Part shown: positions 2,186 through 63,357 of the stretch, piece by piece | Layout of the letters: the number at the start of each line of letters is the position of its first letter | Position numbering within the stretch: the stretch's first letter is position 1 | DNA from: Octopus vulgaris | Lineage: Eukaryota | Direction of reading: 5' to 3' | Length of the DNA: 64,000 nucleotides | Assembly (NCBI GenBank): GCA_951406725.2 | Contig: OX597831.1 | Location: forward strand, 76,570,001 to 76,634,000 | Program-made: the position numbers and the translations under genes | The notes under the pieces: generated by a model | Database searches by the model: none | Told to the model about the DNA's origin: nothing | The model's input: only the letters and a program-made list of their open reading frames with translations

Positions 2186-2238
2186 TATATATATATAGAT
2201 ATTTTTTATTTATTTATCTATTTACTTACTCATTTCAG

Positions 2239-3274
2239 ATCCTGGTTGGCACCGCCATCTCTGCTGCAATCATCAACATCTTCTACAACATTACCAATGC
2301 TATTACCGACGGCACCAACATCCTCATTCTCTCCACATACAAAGCCGTTGTCTGTTCCACACCGTTTGAATGACAAGCAGATTTCGAAACGGTCAAACGT
2401 TCCTATCTCTTCCGACTGTTCAGATCGCCAAAATAATCATAATAATAAGTTGCATCGAGTTAATATCGCTTCCTTTCACGACTGGAGCGAGAAATCTTTA
2501 GAGAATGCTCCGGTTTCTAAAATTTACCAAGAAATGGCCACTTTGTCTTCAATATGTTCATTGAGCGAATCTAATCAAAATGGATTATCAAGAGAAAACA
2601 ATGGCAGACGACAGGTCGGCTGCCATAAACTCTTCTTGCCGGAAGGAACAGATTTGACAAAAGGAGAGAAAAATATAATAGCTGGTCTCTGCCGTAACCG
2701 AGGTTGTGTACTCCCACATATTGATGTCTCAAAGAAAGAGTCGAATTCTTCGTCTGAAAACTGTAAAAGAGTTAATATGAAAGGTAAAAAAATAGTCAGT
2801 TATTTCCCTTCTATTCAGAACCTGGACAGCTCTTCAATGTTTTTACAAACCGTAAAAACCAATAAGAAAGAGGAATGCATTTATCATTGGTGGGAACAAA
2901 ATCCGAATGTTGCAGCCAATTGTCTGCGCAAGTATAACGCATCGTGTGCCCTTCCGTTAGGAATGAACTATTTCAAAGACTATATGTCGTGTTTATTTTT
3001 AGATATGGGTTCGCAGATGTTTCATGCTGGCCGTAAGAATTCATCTTCGTCATCACCGTATGCATCGAGCGGATCCTCTAGGAATCTTCACGGAATCAAA
3101 GCACCGCCAAACACACCAAATTTAGAAGTTACCAATGCGAAAGATGGCAAAGTAAAGAATGGTAAAAGCAACAGAAAAGAAGTCAAGTTGGAAAATAGTA
3201 AAAAGAAAACCCATTTGGTAGTATATGTGCCGAAGGCTGAGGAAGACATTTGCGACAAAGATAGCAGAGATTAA
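2239..3274 (+). CDS. Probable terminal coding exon of an unidentified gene (Ser/Asn/Lys-rich, several Cys/His)
   Basis: ~345-codon open frame in AT-rich DNA, preceded by tttacttactcatttcag acceptor, ends TAA; no family recognised. Confidence 0.5.
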
Positions 3275-9684: not shown

Positions 9685-9790
<106 letters not shown>

Positions 9791-9807
9791 GTATATATAT
9801 ATACATA

Positions 9808-13948: not shown

Positions 13949-14024
13949 ATGATGGATTATTGCCATGTAACAATATACGTGTTATTTCTTTGTCTCGCTG
14001 CGTGTGGTTTCGTTCCCGTCTCTG
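13949..14024 (+). CDS. ADAM17: ADAM17-like exon 1 (signal peptide [25 protein letters not shown])
   Basis: ATG, hydrophobic core, strong donor G|gtaagt; phase 1 matches exon 2. Confidence 0.75.
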
Positions 14025-20500: not shown

Positions 20501-23500
20501 GTGTTGTTATCACTCACTGACTCATTATGAATTTAGCTCATTAAAACGTGACACTGCCTATATGACTGCCTTTGCCAACTGCATGCAGTCGTTGTTGCAG
20601 GCATGGCTTTGGTCGGTACAGACGTAGCCGTGAGGCTAAGTAGTTTGTTTTCCTATCATATGGTTCCAGGTTCAGTCCCACTGCATGGCACTTTGGGCAA
20701 GTGTCCTCTACAATAGCCCCAGGTGGACCAAAGCAGTGGTTCTTGACCTTAGTGGGGTCACACTGAAAAAAGGTAAAACATGAATGAATTTTAAAAAATT
20801 TATATTTGAATGAAGACCATCAAAGGCCACTTGGGGCCCTGGGAGCCGCAGTTGAAGACCGCTGAACCAAAGACTTGTGAGTGAATCTGGTGGTTGGAAA
20901 CTGAATGAAACTTATCATCATCATCATCATTTAACATCCGTTTTCCCTGCTGGTATGGGTTGGACAGTTTGACAGGAGCTGCTTCTGCTCCCTGTCTGTT
21001 TTGACATGGTACCTTACAGCTGGATGCCCTCCCTAATGCCAACCCCTTTACAGAGTGTAGTGGGTGTCTTTACACAGCACCAGCAGGGGTGCATGTACAT
21101 TCCACCAGTAAGGGTGCTTTTTAGGTGGCACCCCAGCACCCGTGAACCTGCAAGATTTGGAACGGTCAGCTGGAGAGGGATGCCGAGGACATACCTGCAT
21201 GCAAAGATGACCATGTATTTACTCAGCCAGCTTGATGTGTCTTCTCAGTCAGAGCAAACCACCAAGAGTTATGGCTAATGCTGAGGTGTAAATGGCCAGG
21301 TAGACTGCAAACTATAGTGTAAATGGCCAGGTAGACTGCATGCTAAAGTGGTGCCGTTTAATCAAACCAACTTAATTACTAATTTATAGTATATCTTATA
21401 TTTTATTTTCGCTCCGGAGCATAAAAATATACAGATGTATACACAACTCAAGAATAATAATTTCAGACAAACTAATGAAGAGAATAACAAACAAAAAAAA
21501 AACATTCAGAAGAATTACAATAAGAAGCTTATCTTATATGACACAATATCTATGTCCTTATATTTTTGAACAGGGAGTCCAGCACAAGACACAGATATTG
21601 TGTTGTATAGCCAGCTGGAAACGATATTTCCTGGGGCTAAACAGCAATAACACTCGTTCCTTCCAGGGCAGCCACATTATTTTGGCAAATAGCATTTACT
21701 TTAGAGAACTTTCACTGAATATCTCTCTTTGAGAGCTTTAGAAATAATAATGTTTCTATTTATATGTTATAAAATGGTAATTAAATCAATTTAATTAAAC
21801 TAAGCGCTTTGTTTATAAAATATATAGTATGAAATGGTAATTAAACCAGTTTAATTAATCTTAGTAATCATCAGTGTAAATGATGCTTGTAACTAAATTC
21901 ATTGTTTAACTTGATAATTTGCTTTTAAGTAGTTATAATAGGAACGATAATAATAATAATAATAATAAAACTGAAAGGTGTGGCTGTATGGTAAGAAGAT
22001 TGCTTCCCACACATGGGTTCAGTCCCACAGCATGGCACCTTGGGCAAGTGTCTTCTATTGTAGCCTTAGGCTGACCAAAGCCTTGTGAGTGGATTTAGTA
22101 CAAGGAAACTGCCATTACATTCTGAGTTCAAATTCTGCCAAGGTCAACTTTATCTTTCATCCTTTTGGAGTCAATTAAATAAGTACCAGTTATGCACTGG
22201 GGTTGATGTAATCATCTTGTTAGGGTTATAGAAGACAGTGTATAGAGTCAAAATCATTGAAAAGGTTGCAAGACGCAACGAAAATTTTAGAAAAATAAGA
22301 AAGAAATAAGTGGAAATTTTACTGGTGAGTGTGTTACATTATAAGGCACAAAAAGAGAATGACTCTCCCCAGACACAACAGAATATTCTTCAACACACGA
22401 ACTCACATAAAGAATCTTAGAAACCAAATCCAAAAACGAAACATGGATTAGTTGTAGTAAAGATTGTTTGCCAACATAACATGGCAGTCCTGGTTTAGGA
22501 CGAATGTTGCTGTAATATAGCTCCAGGCGACATTGTCTCCAGCTGGCTATATGACACGATCTGTGTCCTTATAGATCGTATCGTATAGCCAGCTAGAGAC
22601 GATGTCTCCTAGGGCTAAACCAGGACTGCTATGTTATGTCGGCAAAAATCTTTACTACAAAGTACTGTTGCTGAATATCTCTCATTGTGAGATTTAAAAA
22701 TAGTAACCTTCTAATATGGATTAGTTGTTTGAATATATTATGCATGGCCATCCGATCGTGGCTGTGCCAGCCTCGCCTGGCACCTGTGTCAGTGGCACAT
22801 AAAAAGCACCCACTACACTCACGGAGTGGTTGGCGTTAGGAAGGGCATCCAGCTGTAGAAACACTGCCAGATCTGACTGGCCTGGTGCAGCCTTCTGGCT
22901 TCTCAGACCCCAGTTGAACCGTCCAACCCATGCCAGCATGGAAAGTAGACGTTAAACGATGATGATGATGATGTGATTGGATCTTTGATCCAATCCCTGA
23001 ACAGCACAGGACTCAACAAATGTCCAAGCAATCACATAGTAGGTATGTTGACCAATCACTACAGACTAAACTTGATAAGCCTATATAAATTCAAATGTTT
23101 TCAATATGCCGCAGTAGAAATTGGTCTTGCCACGAGGTATTTAGATGATGGTCATTAATTTTCCCTTCCTTGCACCTGCATGCAGGCCTTCACTCCTCAT
23201 CCCCGATCATCACACCACACCGCACCACTGCCCTATCCTTTTCTAAAACTCTTCCAATGTAGTACATCGTTTATCTGTTTGTATTTCCCAGTGCACACTT
23301 CGTCTTTTGCAGGAAATATACAGCAGAAACTGCACTATTTTGAAACCCTGAAATCTACAGACATTCACATAATCACTAAACGTAGCATTGACGCCAACCC
23401 CCAGTCACACCTTAAGTTTGTACACCTGAAAGGACTAGGCAGGTAGGTTGCTAATGTTCGTTAAGAACAATGTTATTTTTGTGTATTTCAAGGGTTGGGG

Positions 23501-26500
23501 GTTTATTCAGTGACAAGGGCTGATTAATTTTCTATTTCTAATTATAAATCCTCATTGCTGGGGTCTGTTTGTGCTGTGGCTCAAAGAGTATTCTCTTCCC
23601 TTAACCTTACAATCAGGCATCTCTCTCACTCATTCTGTTGACTCAAACTTTATGCATACTTGCTACTCTGTTAACCTACACTCAAACCTGCACTCTCAAA
23701 CCTGACTTTAAACTAAATTGAGCTTCACTCTCACTTACTCTTTTAATTCAAGCATCACACTCACCCTGTTGAAACTGACATCAGTCTTATTCTGTCAACA
23801 CAGATCTCTCACTCACTCTTAACTCAAACTTAAGTCTCACTCACTATTGATTCAAACTTCACTCTCATTCCCTCTTGACTTAAATGTCAGTCTCTCTCAC
23901 TCTACAGATGCAGACCTCACTTTCATTCACTGTATTGGCACAACCTCTCACTCACCCTTTTGGCACAGGCCTCGCTTCCACTCAATTGGCACAGACCTCA
24001 CTCTCACTCACTCTAGTGACTCAAACCCATCCTCACTAACTATTAAATACAAACTTCAAATTATGTTTTAGTGATATTTAAGTGCTCCAGTCTGGTCATC
24101 ACTATATTTGTATAGTTATGGTTTAAATTAAGGTTTTTGAGTGTTTTCCACAATTTTCTCTTGTATTTTTTTGGTTAATTTGAAGAAATTCTCAGAATAA
24201 AGCAAGAATTGATAACATTATAGAGTTTTTTGTTTTTTGTTTTCTTTGTTTGATGTTTGCTTGTATTTTTATTTTCATTATTTTTATCCAGGGACTTCAA
24301 TTTTTATTTACGTTCCAAGCAGCAAGTTTTGACCTACGATTTCAAAGCCACTGTAGTCGATGCAGATGGTCACGAAACTTCACTTTTTGTTGATAAGAAT
24401 GCCTTTTATCAAGGAGCGCTACAAGGTGCGTCAGTAAGTTCATTCACATCACCACCATCATCATCATCATCATCATCGCCATTGTTTTAACGTTTTCTTT
24501 TCTGTATTTACGTGGTGCAGGTGAGAGAGTATTGTTGGAGTAGAGTTTTCTGTGGTCAGATACCCTTCCTGATCCCTACTCTCCCTTATTTCCAAGCAAA
24601 CTAATAACCCCACCATGACCACTACTGTCTAATGAACAATGAACAGCCTGGATACAGTTACACAGAAAGACTGGAAACAAACGACACTCTGTGAACGAGT
24701 CTTTTGTTTATGAAAACCACTCAACGTGCTAAAGACTTGTCTGAAGTTGTCGTATGCTTTTGTGGTGGACTGCAAGCAAAGGACAATGTCTGGACAGTGA
24801 GGCCATTGTTTACAATCAGTAAACACTCATGAGATGACGAAGGGAAATAAGAAGTGTCACTCTCAATAAATTTAATGCTTTGTGCAGGTCAAGACTTGTC
24901 ATAGAAGCCTACAAATGCTTTCAGGGTTGACTTTAGTCAAAGAATACATTTTACACTCAAATATCAGACTTACGCTCTAAAGAGAGGTCTCTCTCTGTCT
25001 TGACTCACACTTCATTCTCACTCACTTGTGACTCAGACTTCAGTCTCACTCACTCGTGACTCAGACTTCAGTCTCATTTGCTCTTGACTCACACTTCAGT
25101 CTCATTTGCTCTTGACTCACACTTCAGTCTCACTCACTCGTGACTCACACTTCAGTTTCACTTCGCCTTGACTCACACTTCAGTCACACTCCACCTCGAC
25201 TCAGACTTCAGTCTCACTCCATCTTGGCTCAGACTTCAGTCTCACTCCACTTCGATTCAGATTTCAGTCTCACTCACTCTTGACTCAGACTTCAGTTTCA
25301 CTCCGTCTTGACTCAGACTTCAGTCTCACTGACTCTTGACTCAGACTTCAGTCTCACTCGCTCTTGACTCAGACTTCAGTCTCACTCTATCTTGACTCAG
25401 GCTTCAGTCTCACTCACTCTTGACTCAGACTTCAGTCCCACTCGCTCTTTACTCTGACTTATTTACTTTAGTTACCTTGAACCCAAATCCCACCCTAATC
25501 ACTCAAACCTTACTCTCTTACAATCAGCAAACACACAAAGGTGAGAAGAATACAAACTCTCTCTTTCTCCCTCTCTCTCTCTCTCAATGAATTTACATGT
25601 TCTTAATGTTTGTTTTATTTCTCTCTTCTTCCATTTATGCAGACGATGCTCAGTCACATGTTGAAGCTGTTTGGGAAGGTGAGGACTTACTGGCCACCAT
25701 AACCACACCTAATGACACCTATACGGTTGAGGTGAGCTGTTTGATATAACACTTTGATATTCTGGGTTCAGAAATAATGCAAAATTAAACGGACCCCTTC
25801 TTTGTGTCAATGATGAAAACTCTTGATGTTCCCTTTACCTTGTCATCATCATCATCATCATCATCATCATGTGTTCATGTTCCATCATCATCATCATCGT
25901 TTAACGTCCGCTTTCCATGCTAGCATGGGTTGGACGGTTCAACCGGGGTCTGGGTAGCCAGAAGGCTGCACCAGGCTCCAGTCTGATCTGGCAGTGTTTC
26001 TACAGCTGGATGCCCTTCCTAGTGCCAACCACTTTGTGAGTGTAGTTGCTGCTTTTTACGTGCCACCTGCACAGGTGCCAGACGAGGCTGGCAAACAGTC
26101 ACGATCGGATGGTGCTTTTTACGTGCCACCGGCACGGAGACCAGACGAAGCTGGCAACCATGTTGACGTATTTTTACTGGAACCGATGTTCCAAAGACAA
26201 GATTGATCTCCAAGTGTCTCCTTTGGTGTTGGGTTTTCCAGTTGGTTGCCCTTTCTAATGCCAACCACTTTACAACATGGACTGGGTGCTCTTTTCGTGT
26301 CACCTGCACTGTTGCTGGGGTCGCCATGCAGTTTGCAGCCGGGCTATGAGCTACGGGTTGAATTATAGCATAAAGGGCGAAGGTAAAGAATATGTAATAA
26401 AAACCCTAACGCTTACCCCTGACCCTAAACACCAGGTGTGTGTATTCTTTACCTAAGCCACATAATGTGTTGAGTATTTTACTGCTATTTTTAGCAGGTC

Positions 26501-29500: not shown

Positions 29501-32500
29501 GTTTTCATAAGTTTTGATTTACCATCTTCCCCCAAACCTTAGCCACAATTTATGTTCTTAACACATGTTGAATGATAACTAAGTTATTTTACTAAATTCT
29601 TTGTTATATTTAAAATTAATTGAAAGAAACACAGAGCATCTCAAAATAAATATGGTAACAAAAGGGTTAACAAATGATTAATTTAACCCTTTTGATACCA
29701 ACCTGGCTGTAAACACCTCTTGCTCTATAATACGAATGTCTTGTTTTCAAAAGTTCTAAATTAAAATCTTCCACCAAACCTTAGTCACAATTTATGTTCC
29801 TAACACTAGCTTAATGACAACTAAGTTATTTTACTAAATTCTTTGTTATATTTAAAATTAATTGAAAGAAACACAGAGCATCTCAAAATAAATATGGTAA
29901 CAAAAGGGTTAACAAATGATTAATTTAACCCTTTTGATACCAACCTGGCTGTAAACACCTCTTGCTCTATAATACGAATGTCTTGTTTTCAAAAGTTCTA
30001 AATTAAAATCTTCCACCAAACCTTAGTCACAATTTATGTTCCTAACACTAGCTTAATGACAACTAAGTTATTTTACTAAATTCTTTGTTATATTTAAAAT
30101 TAATTGAAAGAAACACAGAGCATCTCAAAATAAATATGGTAACAAAAGGGTTAACAAATGATTAATTTAACCCTTTTGATACCAACCTGGCTGTAAACAC
30201 CTCTTGCTCTATAATACGAATGTCTTGTTTTCAAAAGTTCTAAATTAAAATCTTCCACCAAACCTTAGTCACAATTTATGTTCCTAACACTAGCTTAATG
30301 ACAACTAAGTTATTTTACTAAATTCTTTGTTATATTTAAAATTAATTGAAAGAAACACAGAGCATTTCAACAGAAATATGATAGCAAAAGGGTTTTAATG
30401 TTCAAACTAGCCCTATCCAGCCACTCACACCTACCTTATAGTGTCATTCTAGTAATAAACCACCACACCATTGAAATCTCACAGCTATGAGATAATGCAT
30501 GGTTTACTCAAAACAATTTGAATAAATAAGGATCACATTTGACAGAATAATCTGATTGCTTAAGGGTTCAATACTGGTCTGGGTTTCAAAAGTGGGAGTG
30601 AATAAAGACAGTAAAAAATGATGTTTCCAATGGTTACTGTTTTTTATTTTGTGTGTGTCAGTAGGGAGATCACTGCTTATGACCCTTTACTGGGCCTCTT
30701 AGACTTGGGGAAGGGAGAGAAATTACTCAAAGCAAAGGTTTAAATTTTAATTGCTCGTTAGCCTTTTAAAAATAAATTAATAGATTGTAATTTGACCCTT
30801 TTTGTTTGCTTTTTGAAAATATTACTGGGGTCTTTATTAATCCTGTTGGCAAGGGACCTACAAAGTCTCTATCCACCTCAGGTGTGTGTGTGTGTATGTG
30901 CATGTGCGCACATGTATGAGTGCATGTATGCATGTGTATGTATGTGTGTGTGTGTGTGCAGTAGTGCCTTCAGTGCCCTGTTGCTGACTTTTTAATATTT
31001 TAATTTTGTCTCCCACTATTCTCTCCAGCCCTCTTGGCGCCATCTCCCCAACAGCAAGAACCACACTATGATCATTTACAAAGGCTCAGATGTTGTCAGT
31101 TTCTACAACAAGACAGGACATGGAAAGTAAGTTGCCTCTTCTTCTTCTTCTTCTTCTACCCCCCCACCCCCCGGCCATCTTTATTCGTTTTTCTCTGCTT
31201 TTCTTTCTTAACTTCCAAAAATTGCCGATTATTTTCAAGAACAGAGAAACAGGAAAAACTAGCCGAGGAAAAGGATTGGTTCCACTTGACAAGAACATAC
31301 TCGCCTCATGTTGTCTAGTGGTTCCCAGACTTTTTGGGGCTGCCACCCCCTTAGCACCTGGGCCACATTCCTAGTGCCTCCGCCCCAGCTAACCCTCACA
31401 AACATTGACCTCTTTCTAAAACAAATTCAAACCAACTGCATTTCACAAACAAAAATTTAACCTAATCAATCCATTATTTTGATGTTTTTACATGAATCGG
31501 CCCCTTTTCATTATACTGGTGGCTGTGGTGAAAGACTGTATGGTGGGCTCATTTGAAAGGTTTAGAGACAAATACTTTCCTCTCAGGCCAACCTCCCATC
31601 AACTTTTTCAAGTATCACTTGAAAAAGAAGATGAGAATAGAAAGGGAAGTTTTGTCTAATGAAAAGGTGGGTGAATGTGGCAAGGATGGTATGCATAAAT
31701 GATGGAACCACCTTGAGCATGGTCTTATAAAACAAAGAGAGAAAGAGTGCTTTGCTCTCGTGTTGTGTTTTTTTTTTTTTCGTTTTTTAGGTTACCGTGG
31801 TTCTTTTTTATAGGTTTTTCTTTCCACGGATAAACCTAGTCAGTGTTATATTTAGTCCCCCTTTTGGGAACTCTAATTTTTAAAAACCGACACTTTTGTT
31901 AGTTCCTTGTGTACACGTCCCAAAATGTTTTCAATCCCTTTTGATCATTTTCGAAAATAATAAATTCTACATTGTGCTCGGCCCTGCGGGGCTAATAAAA
32001 AAATCTATCACCCCACTTTTCTTCAACGACCCCTTGGAACCTTCCACCACCCCTGGGGGAAGAGTACCGCTCACTTAGGGAACCATTGGTTTAGATTCAC
32101 CTTCGGTCTGGATTCACCTTTGTAAATAGCATTTTTATTATTAAGGCTTTAGGCTGACAGTATCATTAGCATGTTGGGCAAAATGCTTTGCAGCGTTTTT
32201 TTCAGTGTTATGTTCTGAGTTCAAATCCTGCTATGGTCAATCAACTCTGCCTTTCATCCCTTTTCACTTGATAAGTACCTATTTCTTTATTACCCACAAG
32301 GGGCTAAACACAGAGGGGACAAACAAGGACAGACATAGGTATTAAGTCGATTACATCGACCCCAGTGCATAACTGGTACTTAATTTATCAACCCCGGAAG
32401 GATGAAAGGCAAAGTCGACCTCGGCGGAATTTGAACTCACAACGTAACGGCAGGTACTTGATAAGTACCTGTTGAGCATCAGGATTGATGTAATTGACTA

Positions 32501-33073: not shown

Positions 33074-34341
33074 TAGTTCTGTTTTTATATCATGCTTTCA
33101 CTTCACTACCGAGCGCAGCTCTGTGTGCCTTGGGTATGTGCTGTGATTTGTTGTGATGTTCTGATGGTTCCTGTATGGAAAGTGTTCTACGTAGGATGTG
33201 TGCAGTGCCCAGTAGTGCAATCTTCTCTATGTTATATATGTTTGTAAGTCCTGGTGTTTTTGTTATGTATTTGTCTGAATATTTTTTTATCATGCCTAAT
33301 GCACCTACTATGATAGGAATTGTTTCTGTTTTCAGATTCCACATTCTAGTTACCTCTATTTCCAGGTCTTTGTATTTTGAGAGTTTCTCCATTTCTTTTA
33401 GAGACACGTTGTCATCAGCCGGTATTGATACATCAATTAGAAAGCATTTTTTTTCTTTATCTGTGTGTATCGGCATATCCCAGAGTATGGTTGCTTTCTC
33501 GTTTTCTGTGACCTTTTCTGGTGTGTGCCTATACCATCTTTTTTCTGTTGTTATTCCATAATGTTGGCATAGCTTCCAGTGTATGTAGGTTCCAACTCTG
33601 TCATGTCTGTGAATATATTCCTTCTTAGCCAGGACTGGGCAGCCAGAGATAATATGATTTATTGTTTCTTGTCCATCTCCACATATTCTGCAGTTACTTG
33701 TTATATTTCTTTTCATTACATGTATTTGGTAATTTCTGGTGGGGAGGCTTTGGTCTTGTGCTGCAATTAAAAATCCCTCTGTCTCTGCTTTGAGTCCTGA
33801 GCTTTTCAACCATTGCTGGGATTTTTCTTTGTCTATTTCTTTTGCGTTTAGTTAAGTCCAGTATTTGCCATGAAGGGGCTTTTCTTGCCATCGTTTTATC
33901 ATGGCTCGTTGCTGTTCTATTTTTAGTTTGGATTTCATTTGTTTTATAGCTTTTGTTGTTTCTTCATCTTCTTCTTCTTCTTCTTCTTCTTCTTCTTCTT
34001 CTTCTTCTTCTTCTCCTTCTTCATATTTATTATGGGGTATGATTTCTTGTTTGAATTTGTCAGCTTCCTTAAATACTGAGAACAGTTTTTGTTTTGCTTG
34101 TGTTTTGCGGCTATTTGTATCAGTTTTACTTATTCTCTCTCTCTTTTACTCTTTTCAGTCATTTGACTGCAGCCATGCTGGAGCACTGCCTTTAGTCGAG
34201 CAAATCGACCCCGGGACTTATTCTTTGTAAGCCCAGTACTTATTCTGTCGGTCTCTTTTGCCGAACCGCTAAGTGACTGGGACGTAAACACACCAGTATT
34301 GGTTGTCAAGCAATGCTAGGGGGACAAACACAGACACACAA

Positions 34342-53131: not shown

Positions 53132-56100
53132 GACATGCTTCTTTGAGTTTCCATCTACCAAATCCACTCACAAGGCTTTGGTCGGCCTGAGACTATAGTA
53201 GAAGACACCTGCCCAAGATGCCACACAGTGGGACTGAACCCAGAACCATGAGGTAGGTAAGCAAGCTACTTACCACACAGCACATGTTTTATGTTCAAAT
53301 TGGCTAGGTCTGGCCTCTTACACCTGCCCTTCACTGTCAGTCTAAAAATAAACAATCACATCATCGTGCTTTAAAAGAAGACCCATCAAGCTGAGCAAAA
53401 TCGTCCAACCCATGCCAGCATGGACAACTGACGTTAAATGATGATCATCATCATCATTGAAATCTCAATGTTGCTGATGCTATCAGGACAAAATCCCCAC
53501 CAAGACCAAAATCCACCAAAGATAAAATTCCTCCAGACAAATTTTACACAAAAATATAAACTAATAAATATTCTAAATTTTTTTGTAAAATTTTTCTTCG
53601 CTAAAATATTTTTATTGTAAAGAAAGAACAACACCCCAGGCGATATTGACTGCCGGGGGACTATGTCCTAGTACCACAACTGATAATGCATAATTCATTC
53701 AAAACAATGTGAATTAGTAAACATTACATTTGACAGAACAATCTGATTGCTAAAGGTTTAAATTATGCAAATTACCAATACCATAAATGTGTTTCTACTC
53801 ATTTTGCATTTGTCTAAGTTCCTTGGTTACTGGAGATAGGTTAGGGCAGCTGCTGTGTTGATGAGGCCTATTGAGGCAGAAACATGTGTCCTTGACTGTC
53901 CTCTTGTCTCCTGACAATAAACCTGTCCTTTCAACTTTGGAGAATTCCTAATTCTTGAGATTATCTCCCTTCCTCGAGTGGAACTGGTCTTATTTGCCAT
54001 TTGGTTGTTATGATACTTCATCTGGAGGTGGAGGTCATCATCATCATCATCGTTTAACATCCGCTTTCCATGCTAGCATGGGTTGGATGATTTTGACTGA
54101 GGACTGGCGAACCAGATGGCTGCACCAGGCTCCAATCTGATCTGGCAGAGTTTCTACAGCTGGATGTCCTTCCTAACGCCAACCACTCTGAGAGTATAGA
54201 GGGTGCTTTTACGTGCCACCAGCATGAGGGCAAGTTTGGTGGTACTGGTAAAGGCCACGCTGAAATGGCGCTTTTTATGTGCCACCTGCACAGGAGCCAG
54301 TCCAGCGGCACAGGCGATGACCTCGCTCGAATGTTTCACGTGCCACCAGCACAAGTGCCAGTAAGGCGACACGGTAACGATCACGCTCGAATGGTGTGCT
54401 TAACGTGCCATCGGCACGAAGGCCAGCTTGTTGCTCTGGCAACGATCTCACTCGTATGGTACTCTTAGCTCTCCACTGGCAACGGATGCCAGTCACCGAG
54501 TTTGATATATGTATGTATATATATATGTATATATATATATGTATGTGTCTGTGTTTGTTCCTGCACTTTTGCTTGACAAGCAATGTTGGTGTGTTTACGT
54601 CCCCGTAAACTTTTGTAGTTTGACAAAAGGGACCAATAGAATCAGCACTAGGCTTACAAAGAATAAGTCCTGGGGTCGATTTGTTTGACTAAAGGTGGTG
54701 CTCCAGCATGGCTGCAGTCAAATGACTGAAACAAATAAAACGAAAACAAAAAGAAAGAAAAAGAATATCATCATCATCATCATCATCGTTTAACGTCCGT
54801 TTTCCGCGCTAGCACGGGTTGGACGGTTTCGACCGGGGTCTGGAGAGCTCGGGACTGCCCCAGGCTCCAGTCTAGTCTGGCAGTGTTTCTACAGCTGGAT
54901 GCCCTTCCTAACGCCAACCACTCCGCGAGTGTAGTGGGTGTTTTTTACGTGCCACCTGCACAGGTGCCAGAGGGGTCTGGCATCGGCCACGTTCGGATGG
55001 TGCTTTTTTTTTTTTTTTTTTATATATAATATATTTTCCATGCTGTCATGGGTTGGATGGTTCCCACAAGAAGTAGCAAGTAAGAAAGATTGCATTAATG
55101 CCTGGTGTCTGCTTTGGTTTTGGCATCGTTTCTATAGATGGATGCCCTTCCTAATACAGATATATTGGTTGCTTCTTTTGCATGGCACCAGCAGTAGCAG
55201 CAACAGTGAGTTCAGCAAGCAAGTTGCAAGGCAAAGAGCCTCTTGACTGAGATGGAGCAGAGTAATATTGGGGGACAGGAAAAGCAGTCTTGCATTAGAG
55301 GGCAAATGTGGCTCCCTCGAGAGGGCAGAGAGTGAGAGAAGATGGTGAAGATGTGATAGGGAAACAGGGATAGGGATATATATATATATATATGGCAAAA
55401 AGAGACCGATAGAATAAGTACTGGGCTTACAAAGAATAAGTCCCGGGGTCGATTTGCTCGACTAAAGGCAGTGCTCCAGCATGGCCGCAGTCAAATGACT
55501 GAAACAAGTAAACGAAAATATACGTGGTCTGGTCAATAAGTATGTGGACTGTTGCCATGGTTACGAAGCTAAAGCATGCAGAGTAAAGCCACTTGGCACA
55601 GATTGAGCTTGAACTCTGCTGTGCAGGCACACTAAGTTTTAACATTCTGGCTCACTTCCACTGTTTACAGCAGTGCTTAGAAGGAAGGTGTGTAGCGTGT
55701 GATCATCGCATTGACAATGACAGATGGTTGAGCTGAAAATTTGCATCAAATTTTGCCAAAAGCTTGGTGGTACCTGCTCAGAGGCCTTCGCAAAGTTTTC
55801 AAAATGTTTTCATCATTCTCAACACAATCAAGGAGATCTTATGCATCTGAAACCCGAATGTCTTCTTGGTCAGCTGAAAACAGTTTTGGCACAAACTTGG
55901 CAGACACACATCTCATACCCAAATCTTCAGTGATAATGGACTGAACTGAACCATAACTAATCTGCACATCCTCTGGTAACTCACGGATGGTGATTCGACG
56001 ATTTCCCCTCACAACTGCACACATATCTGCAATGTTTTTTTCGGTTCTGCTAGCTGCAGTTCTCCCAGAATGCTTGTCATCTTGGAAAAATCTGAACCCC

Positions 56101-56397
56101 TCATACACTTGTGTGCAGCTCATACACTCCTCTCCATACACTTTCTGTAACTCTACGTAGGCCTGTGAGCAGGTATCACTGTGACAGCTTTCTCTGTCAT
56201 GTCCAATGTGACGATCACACGCAACACACCTTCCTTCCAAGCATTGCTGTAAACAGCGGAAGTGAGCTAGAACGGTAAAAGTTAGTGCACATGCTCAGCA
56301 GAGCTTAAGGTCAATCTTTGTCAAGTGGCTTCACTCTGCATGCTTTAGCCTTGTTACTAAGACAACAGTCTGGATACTTATAGATCAGACCTTGTAA

Positions 56398-56449
<52 letters not shown>

Positions 56450-59400
56450 ATATCTAATATCAAAGATCCTAACCTCTCCATCTAGAGTAAGAACCCAGTC
56501 CTGTAACAGCTTGGGGCTCAAAGCCCATAGCTTTTTAGAACCTTGCCAAAAAGCATACATATTTCTTTACTACCCACAAGGGGCTAAACACACGGATTAA
56601 GTCGATTATATAGACCCCAGTGCGTAACTGGTACTTATTTAATCAACTGCGAAAGGATGAAAGGCAAAGTCGACCTCGGCGAAATTTGAACTCAGAATGT
56701 AGCAGCAGACGAAATACCGCTAAGCATTTCGCCCGGCGTGCTAACGTTTCTGCCAGCTCGCCGTCTTAAAGCATACAGATATGAATATGTTCAAAGAACA
56801 TTTAGACAAATTTTTTATCTGATAAAGCAGATGAACCTACATCATAACAAGAAGCACAAAGAAGGACAGCTTTGTCCAACTCACTGCTTTACCAGACTGA
56901 GTTTTGAGATGACCGAGAAGTGAATATAAAATGCACAAGCATGAGCATAAATGGTGGTGCACCAGCATGGCCACAACCTCTAACTGAAGCCAATGAGGCC
57001 CAGGCATGGCTGTGTGGTAAGAAACCTACTTCCTAGCCACATGGTTCTGAGTTCAATCTTCTACTATAGCCTCAGGCCAACCAAATCCTTGTGTGTGGAT
57101 TTGGTAGGTGGAAACTGAAAGGAATCTGTTGCGTGTGTGTATGTATGTTCCCCATGACCTCTTGACAACTGGTGTTGGTGTGTTTACATCCCTGAAATAT
57201 AGCAGTTCAGCAAAAGCAGCCTATAGGGTAAGTACTAGGCTTAAAGAAATAAGTCCTGGGTTTGTCTAAAAATTCTTCGAGCCTATGCCCCAGCATGGCC
57301 GTTGTCTAATGACCAACACAAAGAAAAGATGCATCTTCTCTCTATATATAAACGGCAGTTTGTCTGTGTGTCTGTCACGTTGTACCCTCACCCTGACCAC
57401 GGCTTTCAACCGATTCTGATGAAACTTGACACACACATAGCCCAATGTCATAATTCAAAACTAACGCAGCGAAAATTTTGAAAAGTTCCCCCAGTTCTGA
57501 AAAATATCGATAAATTCGACATGGGGTCGAGAATCAGAAACACAAACCACAGACTGTCTAGGGGACGCAACTCGACCCTTTTAACTCTCAAAAAAAATTT
57601 ACCATCATTTTTTTGCTATTTTTTGGCTATAACTCTCTAAAAATGCTTTATAGTTATTTCCCTTACAAACCCGGGCAACGCCGGGCGATACTGCTAGTAA
57701 TAGATAAATGCAATGTATTTTACAGTCTTTTACCAAGACGGATCCTTCTTGACTTTGAATACTGGCTGGAGCAGTTCAATGAACACGCAGGGTCACCGTG
57801 TTCTCACTCAAGAAGCCATAATTGTTACCACCCATGGTAAGTGGATCTTTTTATTGTTGTTGTTGTTGTTGTTGTTGCAATGATGACCTACAGGTGGGTC
57901 ACAGCCAGCTGCAATGGGTGTGGATGTCTGGGGATTGTGATGTGTGTAACGAGGGAAAACTTGGGATCGAGGATAATGCTGAGGTCAGTTTTGTGTGGTG
58001 CGTAAAACGTGGGGCTTAGCTGTGTGTGGTGTGTGCAATACCTAGCTTTGTGTATAATATGATACTTAACTATGTTGTTTGATTGTATGACTTGTTTTAT
58101 TATACACTGCCTGGTTGTATGATGTAACTGCTTGTGGACAAATTATTGTCTGATTGTATGATAAAACAGATTGTGGATGGATTATTGTCTAATTGTATGA
58201 TAAAACAGATTGTGGATGGATTATTGTCTAATTGTATGATAAAACAGATTGTGGATGGATTATTGTCTAATTGTATGATAAAACAGATTGTGGATGGATT
58301 ATTGTCTAATTGTATGATAAAACAGATTGTGGATGGATTATTGTCTAATTGTATGATAAAACAGATTGTGGATGGATTATTGTCTGATTGTATGATAAAA
58401 CAGATTGTGGATGGATTATTGTCTAATTGTATGATAAAACAGATTGTGGATGGATTATTGTCTGATATGAATATGCTGCCAATGTATTGTATGTTGCTTG
58501 TGTGTGTTATATATTGTTTGATGATTGTATGATGTAATAGATTGGACAAATTATTATCTGATTGTATGATATAAATATTCTGTCAATATAGGCGCAGGAG
58601 CAGCTGTGTGGTAAGTAGCTTGCTTACCAACCACATAGTTCCGGGTTCAGTCCCACTGCGTGGCGCCTTGGGCAAGTGTCTTCTACTATAGCCTCGGGCC
58701 AACCAAAGCCGTGTGAGTGGATTTGGTAGACGGAAACTGGAAGAAGCCTTCCCTTCCAGACCTAGAGTTACGTGGTGGTGGAATAGTACAGTAGACAAAG
58801 CCATTAGAGCAAAGAAACAGGCCTGGAAAACTTGGAGGGGTGGGGGTAACAGGGAACTGTACCAGGTAGCCAGAAGGAAGGCTGGGTGGCAGGTATACAT
58901 AGCTAAGGGTGAAGCAGAAAAGAAGATGTTTGTCAATGTCCAGCAACGTGGGGATCAAAGAACTGAGGTATTTTGGATTGCAAGACAGTGTGTGAGAGAA
59001 AATTGTGATGTCACAGGAGGGAAATGGGTCCGCATGGATGATGGTGCACTTGCTTTCAATGTTTCTGAAAAGAAAAAGGCTTGGAGAAGCCATTATGAGA
59101 GACTGCTGAATGTGGAGAATGAATGGGAGAAGGAGAGCCTGCCAAATGTTGACCCAGTAGACGGAATTATCCGAATAGACAGCTCCCCAGTAGTTAAGGC
59201 AATTAAGGGTATGAAACCAGGAAAAGCCCCCGGCCCATCGGGAATCACTGCTGAGATGCTTAAAACAGCTGGTTGTGTGGGCTATGGCCTAGTTACCCAC
59301 ATTGTAAACCAGGTAGTTCATAATGGAGTCATACCCAATGACTGGCGTAGCAGCACCATAGTCAACTGCTACAAGGATAAAGGTGATGCTCTAGATAGAA

Positions 59401-62400
59401 ACAACTATAGGGGTATTAAACTGGTGGATCAGGTGATGAAGGTCACAAAGAGGGTCATAGCCCATCTCATCAGGGAGAGAGTTTGCTTAGATGAGATGCA
59501 GTTCAGTTTTGTGCCAGGTAGAAGCACCACTGATGCTATATTCCTGGTCCGACAACTGCAGGAGAAATACCTAGCTAAAGATAAACCCCTCTACATAGCT
59601 TTCGTGGACTTGGAGAAAGCCTTTGACAGGGTCCCCCGATCCCTTATCTGGTGGGCGATGCGGAAACTGGAGATTGATGAATGGTTAATAAGGGCTGTAC
59701 AGGCCCTATACTGAGAGGCTGTCAGCAAGGTTAGGATTGGCAATGAGTATAGTGAAGAATTCCGGGTAGAAGTAGGGGTCCACCAAGGTTCAGCCCTCAG
59801 TCCCCTTTTATTCATCATAGTCCTCCAGGCAATAACAGAGGGATTCAAGATGGGTTGCCCCTGGGAGCTCCTCTATGCTGATGACCTGGCCCTCATAGCA
59901 GAATCACTACCGGAACTAGAAAAGAAATTTCTGGTGTGGAAGCAAGGTTTAGAATCAAAGGGCCTTAGAATAAATGTAGCAAAGACCAACTTGATAGTAA
60001 GCAGAAAGGTGAACTCATCACACACACCCTCGGGCAGGTGGCCCTGCTCGATCTGTAGGAAAGGTGCAGGTAGAAACTCCATAAGATGTACCCATAAGAA
60101 GCATCAGATGTGGTGTGCAAGAGAGACGTTTGTGCTGGTATGGTCATGTACTGCGGATGGATGAGGAGAGATGTGTGAAGAAGTGCCACTCCCAAACAGT
60201 TGAAGGTATCAGGAGGAGAGTTAGACCCAGGAAGACATGGGATGAGGTAGTCAAGCATGACTTTCGAACGTTGGGCCTCACAGAGACAATGATGAAAGAC
60301 GGAGATCTCTGGAGATATGCTGTGACTGCAAAGACCCTGGCCAGCGCTACCATGACTGGTTTCTGTACCGGTGGCACATGACCTGCTGTGCTTGCGGCGA
60401 CCTATTGAGTCAAGTACATCAACATCAAAATTAATATCAAATGGAAATAGTAGTTGTGATACCTGTGCTGGTGGCACGTATAAAGCACCATCCGAACGTG
60501 TCCGATGCCTGCGCCGCCTTGACTGGCTTCTGTGCCAGTGGCACGTAAAAATCACCAACCGATCATGGCCGCTGCCAGCCTCCCCTGGCACCTGTGCCAG
60601 TGGCATGTAAAAAGCACCCACTACACTCATGGAGTGGTTGGCGTTAGGAAGGGCATCCAGCTGTAGAAACACTGCCAGATCAGACCCCAGTCGAACCATC
60701 CAACCCGTGCTAGCATGGAAAACGGAGGTTAAACGATGATGATGATGATATATATATATTCGGTGTTTCTCCCCCACCATTGCTTGAGAATTGATGTTCG
60801 TGTGTTTACGTCCTTGTAACTTATCGGTTCAGCAAAATAGACTGATAGAATAAGTACTAGGCTTACAAAGAATAAGTCCTGGGCTCAATTTGTTCGAGTA
60901 AAAGCGGTGCTCCAGCATGACCGCAGTCAAATGACTGAAACAAATAAAAGAATTCTGTCAATCTATTGTATGTTGTTTGATTGTATAACTTGATGTGTTA
61001 GATATTGTTTGATGGTTGTATGATGTAAAACACTGGTCAAATTATTGTCTGATTGTATGATAGAAATATACTGTTGAAGTATCATATTCGTTTCCTTTAT
61101 AATATATCTTCTTATATTTTCTTTCCCACCAAATGCTGTGTCCATCCTTAACAGAAATTGGTAAGTTAGCATTGTCTTAATCTTTATATTTTTGCATCCC
61201 ACAACACAAATACTGAATAATGTGGTGCTCCGGCATGGCCATGGAAGTTAAAACAAACTAAATACCTGTTTCTTTACTACCCACAAGGGGCTAAACACAG
61301 AGAAGACAAACAAGGACAGACAAACGGATTAAGTCGATTATATCGACTCCAGTGCGTAACTGGTACTTATTTAATCGACGCCGAAAGGATGAAAGGCAAA
61401 GTCGACCTCGGCGGAATTTGAACTCAGAACGTAGCGGCAGACGGAAATACCTCTACGCATTTCGCCTGGCGTGCTAACGTTTCTGCCAGCTCACCACCTT
61501 CTAAAACAAACTAAATACCGCCACCACCACCAAACTGTGTTTTTTATATGGTTTAGTTACTCATTATTCAGGTAGTGATTGGTCATCACATGTCTAAGCG
61601 TCAAGTACACAGACAGAAGCACAACTGACTTCTTTGACAAGAAGCTTGCTTCTCAACCATATGGTTTTCGGTTCAGTCCTGCTGTGCAGCACTCCTAATG
61701 CCAACCACTCCAAGAGTGTAATGGGTACTTTTACATGCCAATGGCACGGGTGCCATTTGCATGACAACAGGGTGTGTTTAAGTGCCACCGACACAAGTGC
61801 CAGTTTGTGCGACACCGGTATCTGTCACAACTGCAATTCTGCTCAGTTTGATGGGTCTTCTTTTAAAGCACGACATAATGCCAAAGGTCTCGGTCATTGC
61901 CTCCATGGGGCCCAACACTCGAAAGGAACACAGCTGCCTTGCCTCCATGCATGTATGCATGCATCTTTGTGTTTGTTCCCTCCAACTCCCATGCCACTTG
62001 ACAACTGGTGTTGGTTTGTTTATATCCTTGTAACTTAGCAGTTTGGCAAAAGCAACTAGTAGAATAAATACCAGACTTTAAAAAAAAAAAAACCCAAAAA
62101 TCAAGTAATGACGGGGTTGATTTGTTTGAGTAAACCTTTTCAAGGCAGTGCTCCAGCATGGCCACAGCCCAGCGACTGAAACAACCTGAAGCTAAAAGAC
62201 AAAAAATTTAAATATCAGGGATCAATGAGTTGCTAAGTGATTTTGGGTTCAGACCAGATTTTTTTGTTTTTTTCTTTTTGTTGTTGAAGGGGTTAGTGTG
62301 TCCTTATTTCATTGGTTTTTTTTTTACATCAGGCCATAACTGGGGTAGTGAGCATGACCCTGGCGAGGGCATCTGTTCCCCTTCATCATTTGACAATGGA

Positions 62401-62451
62401 AAATACGTCATGTACCCTTATGCTGTCTCAGGGTATGAATTAAATAACTAT
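13949..62451 (+). CDS. ADAM17: ADAM17/TACE-like metalloprotease gene, 13 coding exons in the window, 3' part (disintegrin/TM/tail) beyond the window
   Basis: Manual splicing gives a continuous 444-codon frame with a signal peptide, prodomain, Cys-switch-like LYCG, furin site [47 protein letters not shown] and Met-turn VMYPYA. It is colinear with ADAM17 as recalled. All introns are GT-AG with matching phases. Strict orthology versus an ADAM10/17 paralog is untested. Confidence 0.9.
15718..16223 (-). mobile_element. Non-autonomous Helitron-like element (copy 1)
   Basis: 5' A|TCTATATATATAAA, 3' hairpin CCCGAGCAACGCCGGG then CTAG|T. Confidence 0.85.
16340..16856 (+). mobile_element. Non-autonomous Helitron-like element (copy 2, inverted relative to copy 1)
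   Basis: Same termini and body as 15718-16223; A|TC...CTAG|T. Confidence 0.85.
17206..17475. repeat. 81-bp inverted repeat enclosing a 102-bp inverted copy of 15216-15317
   Basis: Arms 17206-17286 and 17395-17475; insert 17294-17395 matches the reverse complement of 15216-15317 with one mismatch seen. Confidence 0.9.
18429..18671. mobile_element. MITE with ~80-bp TIRs and 9-bp TSD (Mutator-like)
   Basis: GGTACTACTT...AAGTAGTACC; CATCTTATC at 18420-18428 and 18672-18680. Confidence 0.88.
18853..19244 (+). mobile_element. Full-length tRNA-derived SINE
   Basis: A box TGGCCTAGTGG, B box GGTTTCGATTCC; TSD TTATCAGCTT at 18843-18852 and 19245-19254. Confidence 0.85.
20734..20864. mobile_element. 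hAT-like MITE nested in a SINE
   Basis: CAGTGGTTCTTGAC...GTTGAAGACCGCTG termini; 8-bp TSD GACCAAAG/AACCAAAG (7/8). Confidence 0.65.
23313..23442 (+). CDS. ADAM17: ADAM17-like exon 2 ([13 protein letters not shown]...KGLGR, prodomain)
   Basis: ttttgcag acceptor, AG|gtaggt donor; resembles the ADAM17 prodomain start, including a basic KR site. Confidence 0.88.
24292..24425 (+). CDS. ADAM17: ADAM17-like exon 3 ([26 protein letters not shown]...FYQGALQ)
   Basis: tttttatccag acceptor, G|gtgcgt donor, prodomain similarity, phases 2/1. Confidence 0.88.
25002..25460. repeat. 28-bp minisatellite (GACTCAGACTTCAGTCTCACTCACTCTT)n, ~16 units
   Basis: Direct periodicity; a decayed relative lies at ~23620-24040. 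Confidence 0.9.
25643..25731 (+). CDS. ADAM17: ADAM17-like exon 4 ([30 protein letters not shown])
   Basis: pyrimidine tract plus gcag, GAG|gtgagc, phases 1/0. Confidence 0.88.
26637..26871 (+). mobile_element. SINE family B, representative copy (tRNA-like head, GCCTTTCATCCTTTCGGGGTCGAT core resembling the Meta domain)
   Basis: Copies at ~8754-9172 (two), 13381-13570(-), 18125-18302, 27775-27965, 32278-32452(-), 41110-41315(-), 56560-56765(-), 61262-61500(-). Confidence 0.85.
27171..27570 (+). mobile_element. SINE family A, representative copy (tRNA head, CORE-like segment, internal TA/TG microsatellite, AAAAGAGT tail)
   Basis: Near-identical copies at ~6047-6492, 9541-13315 (split), 15297-15575, 19553-19965(-), 28365-28769(-), 34137-34858(-), 43080-43493, 43537-44195, 50108-50509, 51560-51960(-), 52880-53280(-), 58588-60951 (split), 63410-63575. 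Confidence 0.9.
29441..30397. repeat. Four tandem 242-bp units, each a TTAA-CCCTT...AAGGG-TTAA MITE (piggyBac-like), nested in a related MITE (~29388-30570)
   Basis: TTAACCCTTT starts at 29441, 29683, 29925, 30167; the first three units end AAAAGGGTTAA, the last AAAAGGGTTTTAA. Confidence 0.88.
31029..31126 (+). CDS. ADAM17: ADAM17-like exon 5 ([22 protein letters not shown]...)
   Basis: ctctccag acceptor, AA|gtaagt; E-P-x-W-R and MIIYK-SD motifs as in ADAM17. Confidence 0.9.
33071..34112 (-). mobile_element. R4/Dong-like LINE 3' part (CCHC finger plus RLE) abutting (TAA)n
   Basis: [51 protein letters not shown]; 3' end joins the TAA microsatellite at 33044-33070. Confidence 0.88.
34392..34690 (+). 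mobile_element. Repeat family C, representative copy (GGTGGCACGTAAAAAGCACC units, GGAAGGGCATCCAGCTGTAGAAA block, (GAT)n tail)
   Basis: Copies at ~22745-22972, 25885-26160(-), 28978-29300(-), 35305-36282 (several), 36372-36710(-), 37540-37728, 54037-54500(-), 54767-55005(-), 62560-62975; also forms the 3' end of RTE fragments. Confidence 0.85.
35139..35230 (+). CDS. ADAM17: ADAM17-like exon 6 (QLYCGVQPG..., cysteine-switch region)
   Basis: tgtttcag acceptor, G|gtaaat, phases 2/1, CG motif. Confidence 0.85.
37988..38154 (+). CDS. ADAM17: ADAM17-like exon 7 (furin site RSKR; start of catalytic domain [13 protein letters not shown]...TANYL)
   Basis: tttttag acceptor, TTA|gtaagt, reprolysin N-terminal motif. 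Confidence 0.92.
38375..39300 (-). mobile_element. 5'-truncated RTE-clade LINE (family 2) with family-C 3' end
   Basis: [33 protein letters not shown]; continues into the C block and (GAT)n tail. Confidence 0.85.
39346..39628. repeat. 52-bp inverted repeat (fold-back or MITE-like)
   Basis: Arms 39346-39397 and 39577-39628, few mismatches. Confidence 0.75.
42010..42660. repeat. Compound (GAT/GGT)n repeat with ~60-bp higher-order units
   Basis: Recurrent GTGATTGATGGTAAAGATGGTGGTGGAGG. Confidence 0.9.
42737..42829 (+). CDS. ADAM17: ADAM17-like exon 8 ([31 protein letters not shown])
   Basis: tttcag acceptor, CAG|gtatgt, RVDxIYRxTxW motif. Confidence 0.92.
43746..43883. repeat. ~53-bp-arm palindrome with a minus-strand CUGAAGA...GAAA core (Penelope-like fold-back end)
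   Basis: Arms 43746-43798 and 43830-43883. Confidence 0.7.
45124..45711. mobile_element. Head-to-head pair of tRNA-headed, (TAA)n-containing elements with a hammerhead-like 3' module
   Basis: Minus copy ~45124-45476 with A/B boxes; plus copy ~45477-45711 truncated in the B box; CTGATGA...GAAA core at ~45593-45626. Confidence 0.7.
45830..45907 (+). CDS. ADAM17: ADAM17-like exon 9 ([26 protein letters not shown])
   Basis: ttccag acceptor, GAG|gtaagt, YN...W...LLE pattern, phases 0/0. Confidence 0.88.
46778..46823 (-). ncRNA. Minimal type I hammerhead ribozyme-like motif
   Basis: GACAC-CUGAUGA-a-GGCUG(gagggtatat)CAGCC-GAAA-CG-UU-GUGUU: stems I and II pair; helix III is the palindrome AACGUU. 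Confidence 0.6.
47300..49890 (-). mobile_element. Degraded RTE-clade LINE (family 2), RT with YADD and an internal Cys/His finger
   Basis: [57 protein letters not shown]...CGRC; several frameshifts. Confidence 0.9.
50545..50833 (-). mobile_element. Internally deleted Tc1/mariner remnant
   Basis: TACAGGGTGATTCAAAA terminus; [21 protein letters not shown] motif. Confidence 0.7.
50923..51465. repeat. Degenerate telomere-like (CCCTAA/CCTAAA)n tract bounded by TGATCTAC/GTAGATCA
   Basis: ~500 bp of decayed TAACCC units; 8-bp inverted ends. Confidence 0.7.
52066..52204 (+). CDS. ADAM17: ADAM17-like exon 10 ([46 protein letters not shown])
   Basis: cacag acceptor, C|gtaagt, hallmark ADAM10/17 motifs. 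Confidence 0.95.
52245..52665. repeat. Degenerate (TTGG/GGTC)n tetranucleotide repeat
   Basis: Direct periodicity. Confidence 0.85.
55523..56394 (-). mobile_element. Mariner-derived element with ~250-bp inverted ends and an N-terminal transposase fragment
   Basis: TA flanks; [50 protein letters not shown]. Confidence 0.85.
57334..57697 (+). mobile_element. Non-autonomous Helitron-like element (related subfamily)
   Basis: TC start, near-identical 3' end TTATTTCCCTTACAAACCCGGGCAACGCCGGGCGATACTGCTAG|T, different internal sequence. Confidence 0.8.
57726..57836 (+). CDS. ADAM17: ADAM17-like exon 11 ([36 protein letters not shown])
   Basis: ttttacag acceptor, CATG|gtaagt; ends with the first zinc-ligand His plus 1 nt. 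Confidence 0.93.
58143..58470. repeat. 39-bp minisatellite (TTATTGTCTAATTGTATGATAAAACAGATTGTGGATGGA)x~8
   Basis: Near-perfect units; decayed units extend to ~58580 and resume at ~60963-61070. Confidence 0.95.
58749..60750 (+). mobile_element. Degraded RTE-clade LINE (family 2) nested in a family-A SINE
   Basis: [29 protein letters not shown]; internal deletion near 60095; outer SINE flanked by ATTCTGTCAAT at 58577-58587 and 60952-60962. Confidence 0.9.
61155..61160 (+). CDS. ADAM17: ADAM17-like exon 12: 6-nt microexon AAATTG completing Glu-Ile-(Gly) of HEIGH
   Basis: ccttaacag|AAATTG|gtaagt with an upstream pyrimidine-rich tract; G+AA=E, ATT=I, G+GC=G restores HExxHxxGxxHD exactly. Confidence 0.85.
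62333..62451 (+). CDS. ADAM17: ADAM17-like exon 13 ([40 protein letters not shown])
   Basis: poly-T tract plus catcag, TAT|gtgagt; second and third zinc His and Met-turn. Confidence 0.95.
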
Positions 62452-63357
62452 GTGAGTATTTTTGTTTCCATGCTTTTGGGGTTTTTTTTTATTTATGTTT
62501 TTTTTTTAATATCTTTTATATATTGTTCAAAAATCAAAATCAAGATCGAAATCAAAATGGAAATTGTAGTTGTGGCCGATGCCAGTGTTACCTGACTGGC
62601 ACCCGTACTGGTGGCACGTAACAAGCACCATTCAATTGTGGGTCTACGCCAGTGCCACCTGACTGGTCCCTGTGCCAGTGGAATGTAAAAAGCACCGTCC
62701 AAACGTCGTTGATGCCAGTCCGCCTTCCCATCTGGCTCGTGTGCCTGTGACACGTAAAATATACTATACGAACTTAATTAATGCCTGGCTCCCATGCCGG
62801 TGGCACATAAAGACCACCCACTACACTCTCTGAGTGGTTGCTGTTAGGAAGGGCATCCAGCTGTAGAAACCCTTTCTGATCAGATTGGAGCCTGGTGCAG
62901 CCTCCTGGCTAGCCAGCCCTCAGTCAAACCGTCCAACCCATGCCAGCATGGAAAGCAGATGTTAAACGATGATGAGGATAATGTTGCATTGTATGGTTTG
63001 CAATTTCATTGTTGTCGTGGTTGGGTGGTAAGCAGCTTGCTTCCCAGCTGCATGGTTTCAGGTTCAGTCCCACTGCTTGGTGTCTTGGGTGGTTGTATTC
63101 TGCTCCAACCTGAGGCCAACCAAAGAGGATTTGGTAAATGCAAACTGAAATCGCTAAACACTCAATCCTATTCTTCATTCTGTTTCTTTGCTATTTTCTT
63201 CTTTATTATCGGCTCTTGAAGATAGACTTGTAATTTATAGTCAATTTGACTTTTCATCTTTTATATTTGTTTCTTTGAGAGTAGATTTAGTGGATGGAAA
63301 CTGAAAGAATCCCATCATGTATATATATATGTGTGTGTTTGTGTATGTCTATATATA

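Follow-up and report, generated by a model that had tools for sequence, protein, structure and literature searches.

A six-base microexon completes the catalytic motif of ADAM17 in Octopus vulgaris and recurs in related animal genes

Plant invertases contain a microexon that, in potato, is reportedly skipped under cold stress. This 9-nt exon (Glyco_hydro_32N) is a frame-preserving phase-1 exon that encodes part of an enzyme signature motif, and plant microexons in general are long conserved, often unannotated and sometimes fused to their neighbours after intron loss (Yu et al., 2022; PMC8831610). In animals, the neural microexons of the SRRM3/4 (eMIC) type (PMC8797185) and the human micro-exons regulated by RBFOX and PTBP1 (PMC4317164) are tissue-switched, very short and frame-preserving, with a long AG-free zone, a set-back pyrimidine tract and a conserved flank. 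According to Li et al. (2015; PMC4317164), constitutive inclusion applies to about 81% of micro-exons in human, this acceptor profile belongs to the alternative and not to the constitutive ones, and the RBFOX motif is enriched downstream of micro-exons, not upstream. For the protease considered here, PMC12184519 attributes metzincin chemistry to three His and one Glu; the human ADAM17 mutant E406A is described in PMC7042727 as inactive or dominant-negative, and in PMC12184519 as retaining iRhom2 binding.

The window, that is, the whole stretch of 64,000 nt of Octopus vulgaris DNA that we analysed (G000:C18:76570001-76634000), matches two protein models annotated as 'ADAM 17-like protease' (CAI9736378.1 and CAI9736379.1). 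Residues 1-444 of CAI9736378.1 are reproduced exactly by 13 window exons with AG/GT ends, which bears out the exon numbers of the first-pass annotation. The rest of the gene is collinear beyond the window, to about G000:C18:76674183, and the exons of the O. sinensis orthologue (P0129) can be followed on G000:C18 through residue 746. The identification of the gene as ADAM17 also held: the protein P0002 scored 402 bits against ADAM17 and 170 bits against ADAM10 among PDB chains, its best PDB sequence match being human ADAM17/TACE (8snl; E 3.8e-119, vs 6.4e-49 for ADAM10), and P0129 carries the Reprolysin, disintegrin and ADAM17 membrane-proximal domains of Pfam in that order. Judged by the PDB match and the membrane-proximal domain of the orthologue, the protein is ADAM17 and not ADAM10; its sheddase activity and iRhom dependence are predicted. 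A strict first-look search of the genome, which was not exhaustive, showed no second ADAM17 copy. Separately, the octopus models P0001, P0128, P0130 and P0131 diverge past the disintegrin domain, by read-through or alternative splicing at about residue 550, and two of them stop without the transmembrane part. The features of the gene within the window are as follows.

13949-14024, 23313-23442, 24292-24425, 25643-25731 and 31029-31126, forward strand: ADAM17 exons 1 to 5, by match to CAI9736378.1
35139-35230, 37988-38154, 42737-42829, 45830-45907 and 52066-52204, forward strand: ADAM17 exons 6 to 10, by match to CAI9736378.1
57726-57836, forward strand: exon 11, ending with the first zinc His and base 1 of the Glu codon
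57837-61154, forward strand: intron A (3,318 nt); within it lie a LINE-like remnant and tandem repeats of 39 bp
61082-61154, forward strand: acceptor region of the microexon, a 73-nt AG-free zone with TGC at -21
61155-61160, forward strand: exon 12, the 6-nt microexon, phase 1-1, with a cag acceptor
61161-61166, forward strand: donor of the microexon, consensus gtaagt
61161-62332, forward strand: intron B (1,172 nt); an interspersed repeat of high copy number occupies about 61260-61500
62333-62451, forward strand: exon 13, starting at base 2 of the Gly codon and carrying the second and third zinc His and a Met

Exon 12 completes the codon of the catalytic Glu, adds Ile and supplies base 1 of Gly in HEIGH, and with it the eleven-residue HExxHxxGxxH zinc motif of ADAM17 (metzincin M12B) is complete; the Met of exon 13 we take to be that of the Met-turn. 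The introns and the upstream DNA also hold repeats and mobile-element remnants. The LINE-like remnant of intron A (58692-60380) contains an open stretch of 340 aa in which motifs resembling reverse transcriptase were recognised by eye; it was inserted within a degenerate repeat tract, parts of which lie at 58030-58583 and 60952-61074, and the tract includes an array of 8.9 copies of 39 bp (58115-58463). Further remnants in ADAM17 introns or upstream of the gene (9559-12500, 33093-33851 and 55842-56294) are of endonuclease-like (weak Pfam match), zf-RVT and mariner-like types, the last a fragment seen by eye without a Pfam match. A local duplication of about 320 nt (1624-1945 vs 2471-2795, 97-98% identity in the main blocks) has its second copy inside a 378-aa open frame (2138-3271) that had no Pfam match.

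The claim from which this analysis started was that six bases in a gap of about 4.5 kb supply the catalytic Glu. The distance from exon 11 to exon 13 is 4,496 nt and all junctions are in phase 1. Reading past the exon 11 donor gives THGKWIF, and the ten residues of the frame before the exon 13 acceptor likewise supply no Glu, so that skipping exon 12 does mean loss of the catalytic Glu. Within the gap there are 44 AG-N6-GT/GC candidates, of which 10 yield HExxH and a single one has a GTRAG donor. For the loose pattern AG-A[AG]NNNG-GT, shuffles of the gap give an expectation of 0.73, so that by itself it is not significant; a strict pattern (YAG, a Glu and a hydrophobic codon, GTRAG), which was picked after seeing the site, turned up 0.001 times per shuffle (1000 shuffles). 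All six octopus protein models, from three species, carry HEIGH, and none of them is labelled as an alternative isoform.

We then looked at the same region in other animals. A scan of metagenome contigs confirmed 120 stretches, the best 80 of which gave at least 76 loci, and in 16 rows, the window included, both flanks were matched, with the upstream match ending in His-G before GT and the downstream exon starting after AG with GN-His. Two rows, L052 and L053, had false upstream matches with stop codons inside and were removed from the two-flank count. Among the matches listed, every one of the 13 non-octopus two-flank loci contains exactly one AG-A[AG]NTNG-GT exon, encoding Glu-Phe in 12 loci and Glu-Leu in one; on the reverse strand the pattern was found 0 times, and shuffles of all 16 rows gave 0.87 expected. 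These loci are annelid-like. Their best named matches, among those listed, are mostly annelid proteins, and their downstream exons are 64-97% alike, which corresponds to about 12 distinct yet related genes.

This conservation is the decisive support for a real exon between exons 11 and 13, and we regard it as very improbable that the six bases are a fortuitous match and that the two residues come from a different site, from editing or from a gap in the assembly. What speaks for a chance match is that such an intron should hold the loose pattern about 0.7 times by chance, that almost a quarter of the gap candidates restore HExxH, and that the exon joints of the RNA contigs are obscured by a high-copy repeat in the four runs considered below. 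Nevertheless, 61155-61160 is the only candidate that combines the EI of the octopus models with a GT donor, which in addition is the consensus donor, the window contains no N, and the same exon recurs at all 13 other loci.

Elsewhere the two introns occur singly or not at all. In L018 (nearest P0008), which we read as rotifer-like, and in L062 (nearest mollusc-group proteins), only intron A is found and the six bases are fused to the next exon. At loci L074, L076 and L078 the position of intron B is marked by an acceptor, followed by an exon 86-91% alike to P0157, a protein that groups with Trichoplax and Corticium proteins; their label as putatively non-bilaterian-like follows from this grouping, and the tree, midpoint-rooted and built without P0009, P0050, P0149 and P0238, gives a rough grouping only. 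Sponge, rotifer-like and non-bilaterian-like genes likewise have one or both of the introns. Loci of arthropod-like type have introns elsewhere and a contiguous motif, with neither intron A nor intron B, and the motif is contiguous in L072 as well. Because the six bases can be fused to the next exon and the motif can be contiguous, a separate exon is dispensable. We can safely state that the microexon is older than the split between molluscs and annelids. An origin before the bilaterians is plausible, given the protein models of Trichoplax and Corticium and the single intron of L074, L076 and L078, and intron A, B or both would have been lost in some lineages; vertebrates presumably lack both. 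Two further loci have introns close by. L046 (1130-1290; nearest P0285) is an ADAM-like gene in which a phase-0 intron directly follows the HExxH Glu codon; it lies two bases from the intron A position and is hence a different intron in the same motif. L016 (1290-1310; nearest P0206) has a phase-1 donor that precedes the first His, six bases 5′ of where intron A would lie, and the remainder of its motif is outside the contig.

The expectation that gene predictors would miss the exon was borne out in the family at large, but not in octopus, where all six models include it. Among the best 150 family representatives, 118 are canonical, 26 are short by exactly two residues (23 by pattern and three, P0219, P0242 and P0249, on reading), two read through at His-Gly and four are otherwise broken or do not cover the region. 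Four of the 133 proteins gathered by the end of a second search lacked exactly the two residues (from Argonauta, Paralvinella, Plakobranchus and Elysia); two Tegillarca models are likewise two residues short, and a Sepia model enters the intron at His-Gly. Ten affected models can be named, from Trichoplax, Corticium (read-through), Capitella (two), Argonauta, Aplysia, Littorina, Tegillarca, Sinanodonta and Haliotis, and all of them are genome-derived. Four Haliotis species have proteins that are more than 90% alike; the residues are present in two of their models and missing from the other two, and at a Capitella locus one model has them and one does not (P0030 and P0200, on contigs of equal length), as would be expected of erratic annotation. 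A two-residue-short model requires intron A and an acceptor at position B, which may be that of intron B or an AG inside the exon where the middle codon ends in A; the Trichoplax model is therefore weaker proof than the annelid-like DNA, since such an internal AG could serve as its acceptor. We infer that most two-residue-short models are annotation failures and not real isoforms, and models short by exactly two residues point to the presence of the microexon in other molluscs. About one in six of these ADAM17-like representatives seems catalytically dead solely through two residues missing at this exon, RefSeq models among them, and surveys of invertebrate sheddases may miscount active enzymes. 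As separate observations, 10 of 13 tree representatives of a divergent ADAM17-like group that includes an Aplysia paralogue lack the two residues (members P0173, P0204, P0219, P0222, P0231, P0233, P0235, P0243, P0249 and P0278), and in P0097 of Mizuhopecten yessoensis a Tyr stands in place of the third zinc His (HELGHSWGSEY), a residue retained by the Argopecten orthologue.

By metzincin chemistry, a product without exon 12 would lose the general base, and the spacing of the zinc His would change from i+4 to i+2. Two natural Haliotis proteins, one with the residues and one lacking them, agree in overall secondary structure in their AlphaFold models but differ in the active-site helix, which extends over 379-388 in the short protein vs 379-393 in the intact one, with local pLDDT of 81/62/66 vs 95/94/81. 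The intact model lies within 1.6-1.7 A of the TACE catalytic domain. These models bear on the fold only and not on stability or trafficking. The earlier inference that skipping would yield a dead enzyme is a sound one, and by analogy to E406A the skipped form might act as a dominant negative.

Several features set the microexon acceptor apart in the 14 loci compared, which are not independent of each other. The AG-free zone has a median of 73.5 nt vs 29 nt for control acceptors, and in 13/14 loci T is scarce close to the AG and abundant at a greater distance, compared with 2/14 for the next exon. The same arrangement is found in octopus, with the T-rich tract set back by more than 20 nt and fewer T directly before the AG; its AG-free zone of 73 nt is not unusual within the gene, as three of the other 11 acceptors have longer ones. 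In two annelid-like groups the 60-80 nt of the acceptor flank show a conservation of 0.67-0.71 vs 0.48-0.61 for other intron segments. The RBFOX motif TGCATG lies at -40 to -54 in 8/20 loci, all of them annelid-like, in a count that leaves out L037, whose candidate sits in G-rich surroundings and has no downstream exon, the cut locus L049, and L056, whose flank is that of L051; none is found within 300 nt of the octopus microexon. TGC (UGC) occurs close to the acceptor in 8/14 microexon loci vs 5/14 controls. The microexon donor is closer to the consensus than the upstream donor in 12/13 annelid-like loci, whereas in octopus both are gtaagt. The annelid-like loci are related, hence their p-values are too strong.

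Transcript evidence comes from assembled sequences, which display the main form alone. All six transcript-assembled lophotrochozoan proteins (P0012, P0141, P0142, P0017, P0025 and P0089) have HExxH, and an exon-less form was found in none of them (0/6). For octopus RNA, contigs without tissue labels from four of 24 listed runs (four studies) were aligned to 61020-62475. In each of the four runs one contig spans exon 13 (62332-62451, to 62455 in one) and leaves the genome at the exon start; two of these contigs are long (2,564 and 3,089 nt) and extend more than 1,100 nt upstream. The contig offsets did not tell inclusion from skipping. No contig covers the microexon plus its intronic flanks in any of the four runs, in assemblies that drop rare forms. 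In Aplysia, RefSeq has two models at one locus (XP_005099982.1 and XP_035826059.1), X1 (884 aa) and X2 (882 aa), whose sole difference is the two residues. Two Haliotis genes and one of Littorina have sole RefSeq models that lack the exon, and for this reason X2 may be an alignment artefact; it may also reflect a tandem acceptor, provided that the paralogue has no intron B.

We consider it likely that an old 6-nt microexon is normally included in the main ADAM17 transcript and is often dropped by annotation. Two phase-1 introns, six bases apart, interrupt the codons of HExxH; recognition of the exon between them would rely on its strong donor together with an acceptor region that is set back and conserved, and an active enzyme would require the exon. 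Direct sight of the exon comes from the DNA and the protein models of octopus and from DNA of annelid-like type, and the HEIGH of the octopus models and the HExxH of the transcript-assembled proteins argue for its normal inclusion, while the Aplysia pair, the acceptor profile and the flank conservation are points against it. The latter are what a regulated on/off switch, as the first-pass annotation had proposed, would lead one to expect. The exon would then be skipped in certain tissues or stages, giving an in-frame, full-length ADAM17 that lacks its general base and has its zinc ligands out of place. By analogy, such a protein might retain its binding to iRhom or to substrates and be a dead or dominant-negative form. 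Since Li et al. (PMC4317164) assign such an acceptor profile to alternative micro-exons, the profile counts toward skipping, as does the resemblance of the AG-free zone, T distribution and flank to those described in PMC8797185. The TGCATG motifs, the preserved fold of the short Haliotis model with its shortened helix, and the behaviour of E406A fit the same picture. On the other hand, no transcript-assembled protein lacks the exon, Aplysia X2 has the other readings given above, octopus has neither a nearby TGCATG nor an exceptional AG-free zone, TGC lies near the acceptor in 8/14 loci vs 5/14 controls, the annelid-like loci are related, and any very short exon may require a set-back acceptor merely to be spliced in. 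On balance we think regulated skipping unlikely.

Compatible with normal inclusion is a timing gate, in which the exon is always present in the mature mRNA and the introns are removed slowly and in order, B first, so that retained-intron precursors would buffer or limit ADAM17 output. The stronger microexon donor of the annelid-like loci favours it, as does the detained upstream intron often found with plant microexons (PMC8831610); against it stand the identical octopus donors and the lack of contigs over the microexon and its intronic flanks, though such contigs would drop rare forms. We give this gate a small chance. The most far-reaching scenario, in which a microexon older than the mollusc-annelid split, and perhaps as old as animals, is skipped under RBFOX- or eMIC-type regulation, so that lophotrochozoans switch shedding off through a full-length dead protease and arthropods and vertebrates gave up this control with intron loss, we judge improbable.

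Overall, exon 12 is real, old, widely mis-annotated and probably included by default, with a possible role as a switch. It is already part of the octopus annotation, and what is new here is its conservation far beyond octopus. A 2019 study by Torres-Mendez (Nat Ecol Evol) reportedly covers octopus microexons; our literature search found no paper on an ADAM17 microexon, and the exon could already stand in that study or in supplements and VastDB tables, which lay outside the search. With only six bases between them, two introns inside a catalytic motif, retained by molluscs and annelids while other lineages lost one or both, offer a clean case for studying microexon origin, and regulated skipping, if true, would give a central signalling protease a splicing switch of a rare kind.

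How does this exon compare with known systems? As an internal coding exon of no more than 15 nt, with AG/GT sites, that restores a conserved protein, it is a coding microexon by its sequence. The human HELGH lies, we assume, inside one ordinary exon. Human ADAM17/TACE (8snl) has the same domain order and zinc motif as the octopus protein, and differs in that microexon control, a candidate in octopus, is not described for it. With the eMIC, RBFOX and PTBP1 exons the ADAM17 exon shares its size, frame preservation and acceptor layout; unlike those tissue-switched exons, it is in all the assembled transcripts seen, and its skipping would remove a catalytic residue. The Drosophila eMIC pattern of a weak own donor and a strong upstream donor, as given in PMC8797185, is reversed in 12/13 annelid-like loci and replaced by equal donors in octopus, and membership among the neural eMIC exons is a candidate assignment only. 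The closest likeness is to the plant microexons, in phase, frame, place within an enzyme signature motif, long conservation, poor annotation and fusion to neighbours after intron loss; this exon, in contrast, belongs to an animal gene, has 6 nt instead of 9 and serves a zinc metalloprotease, and its skipping is hypothetical.
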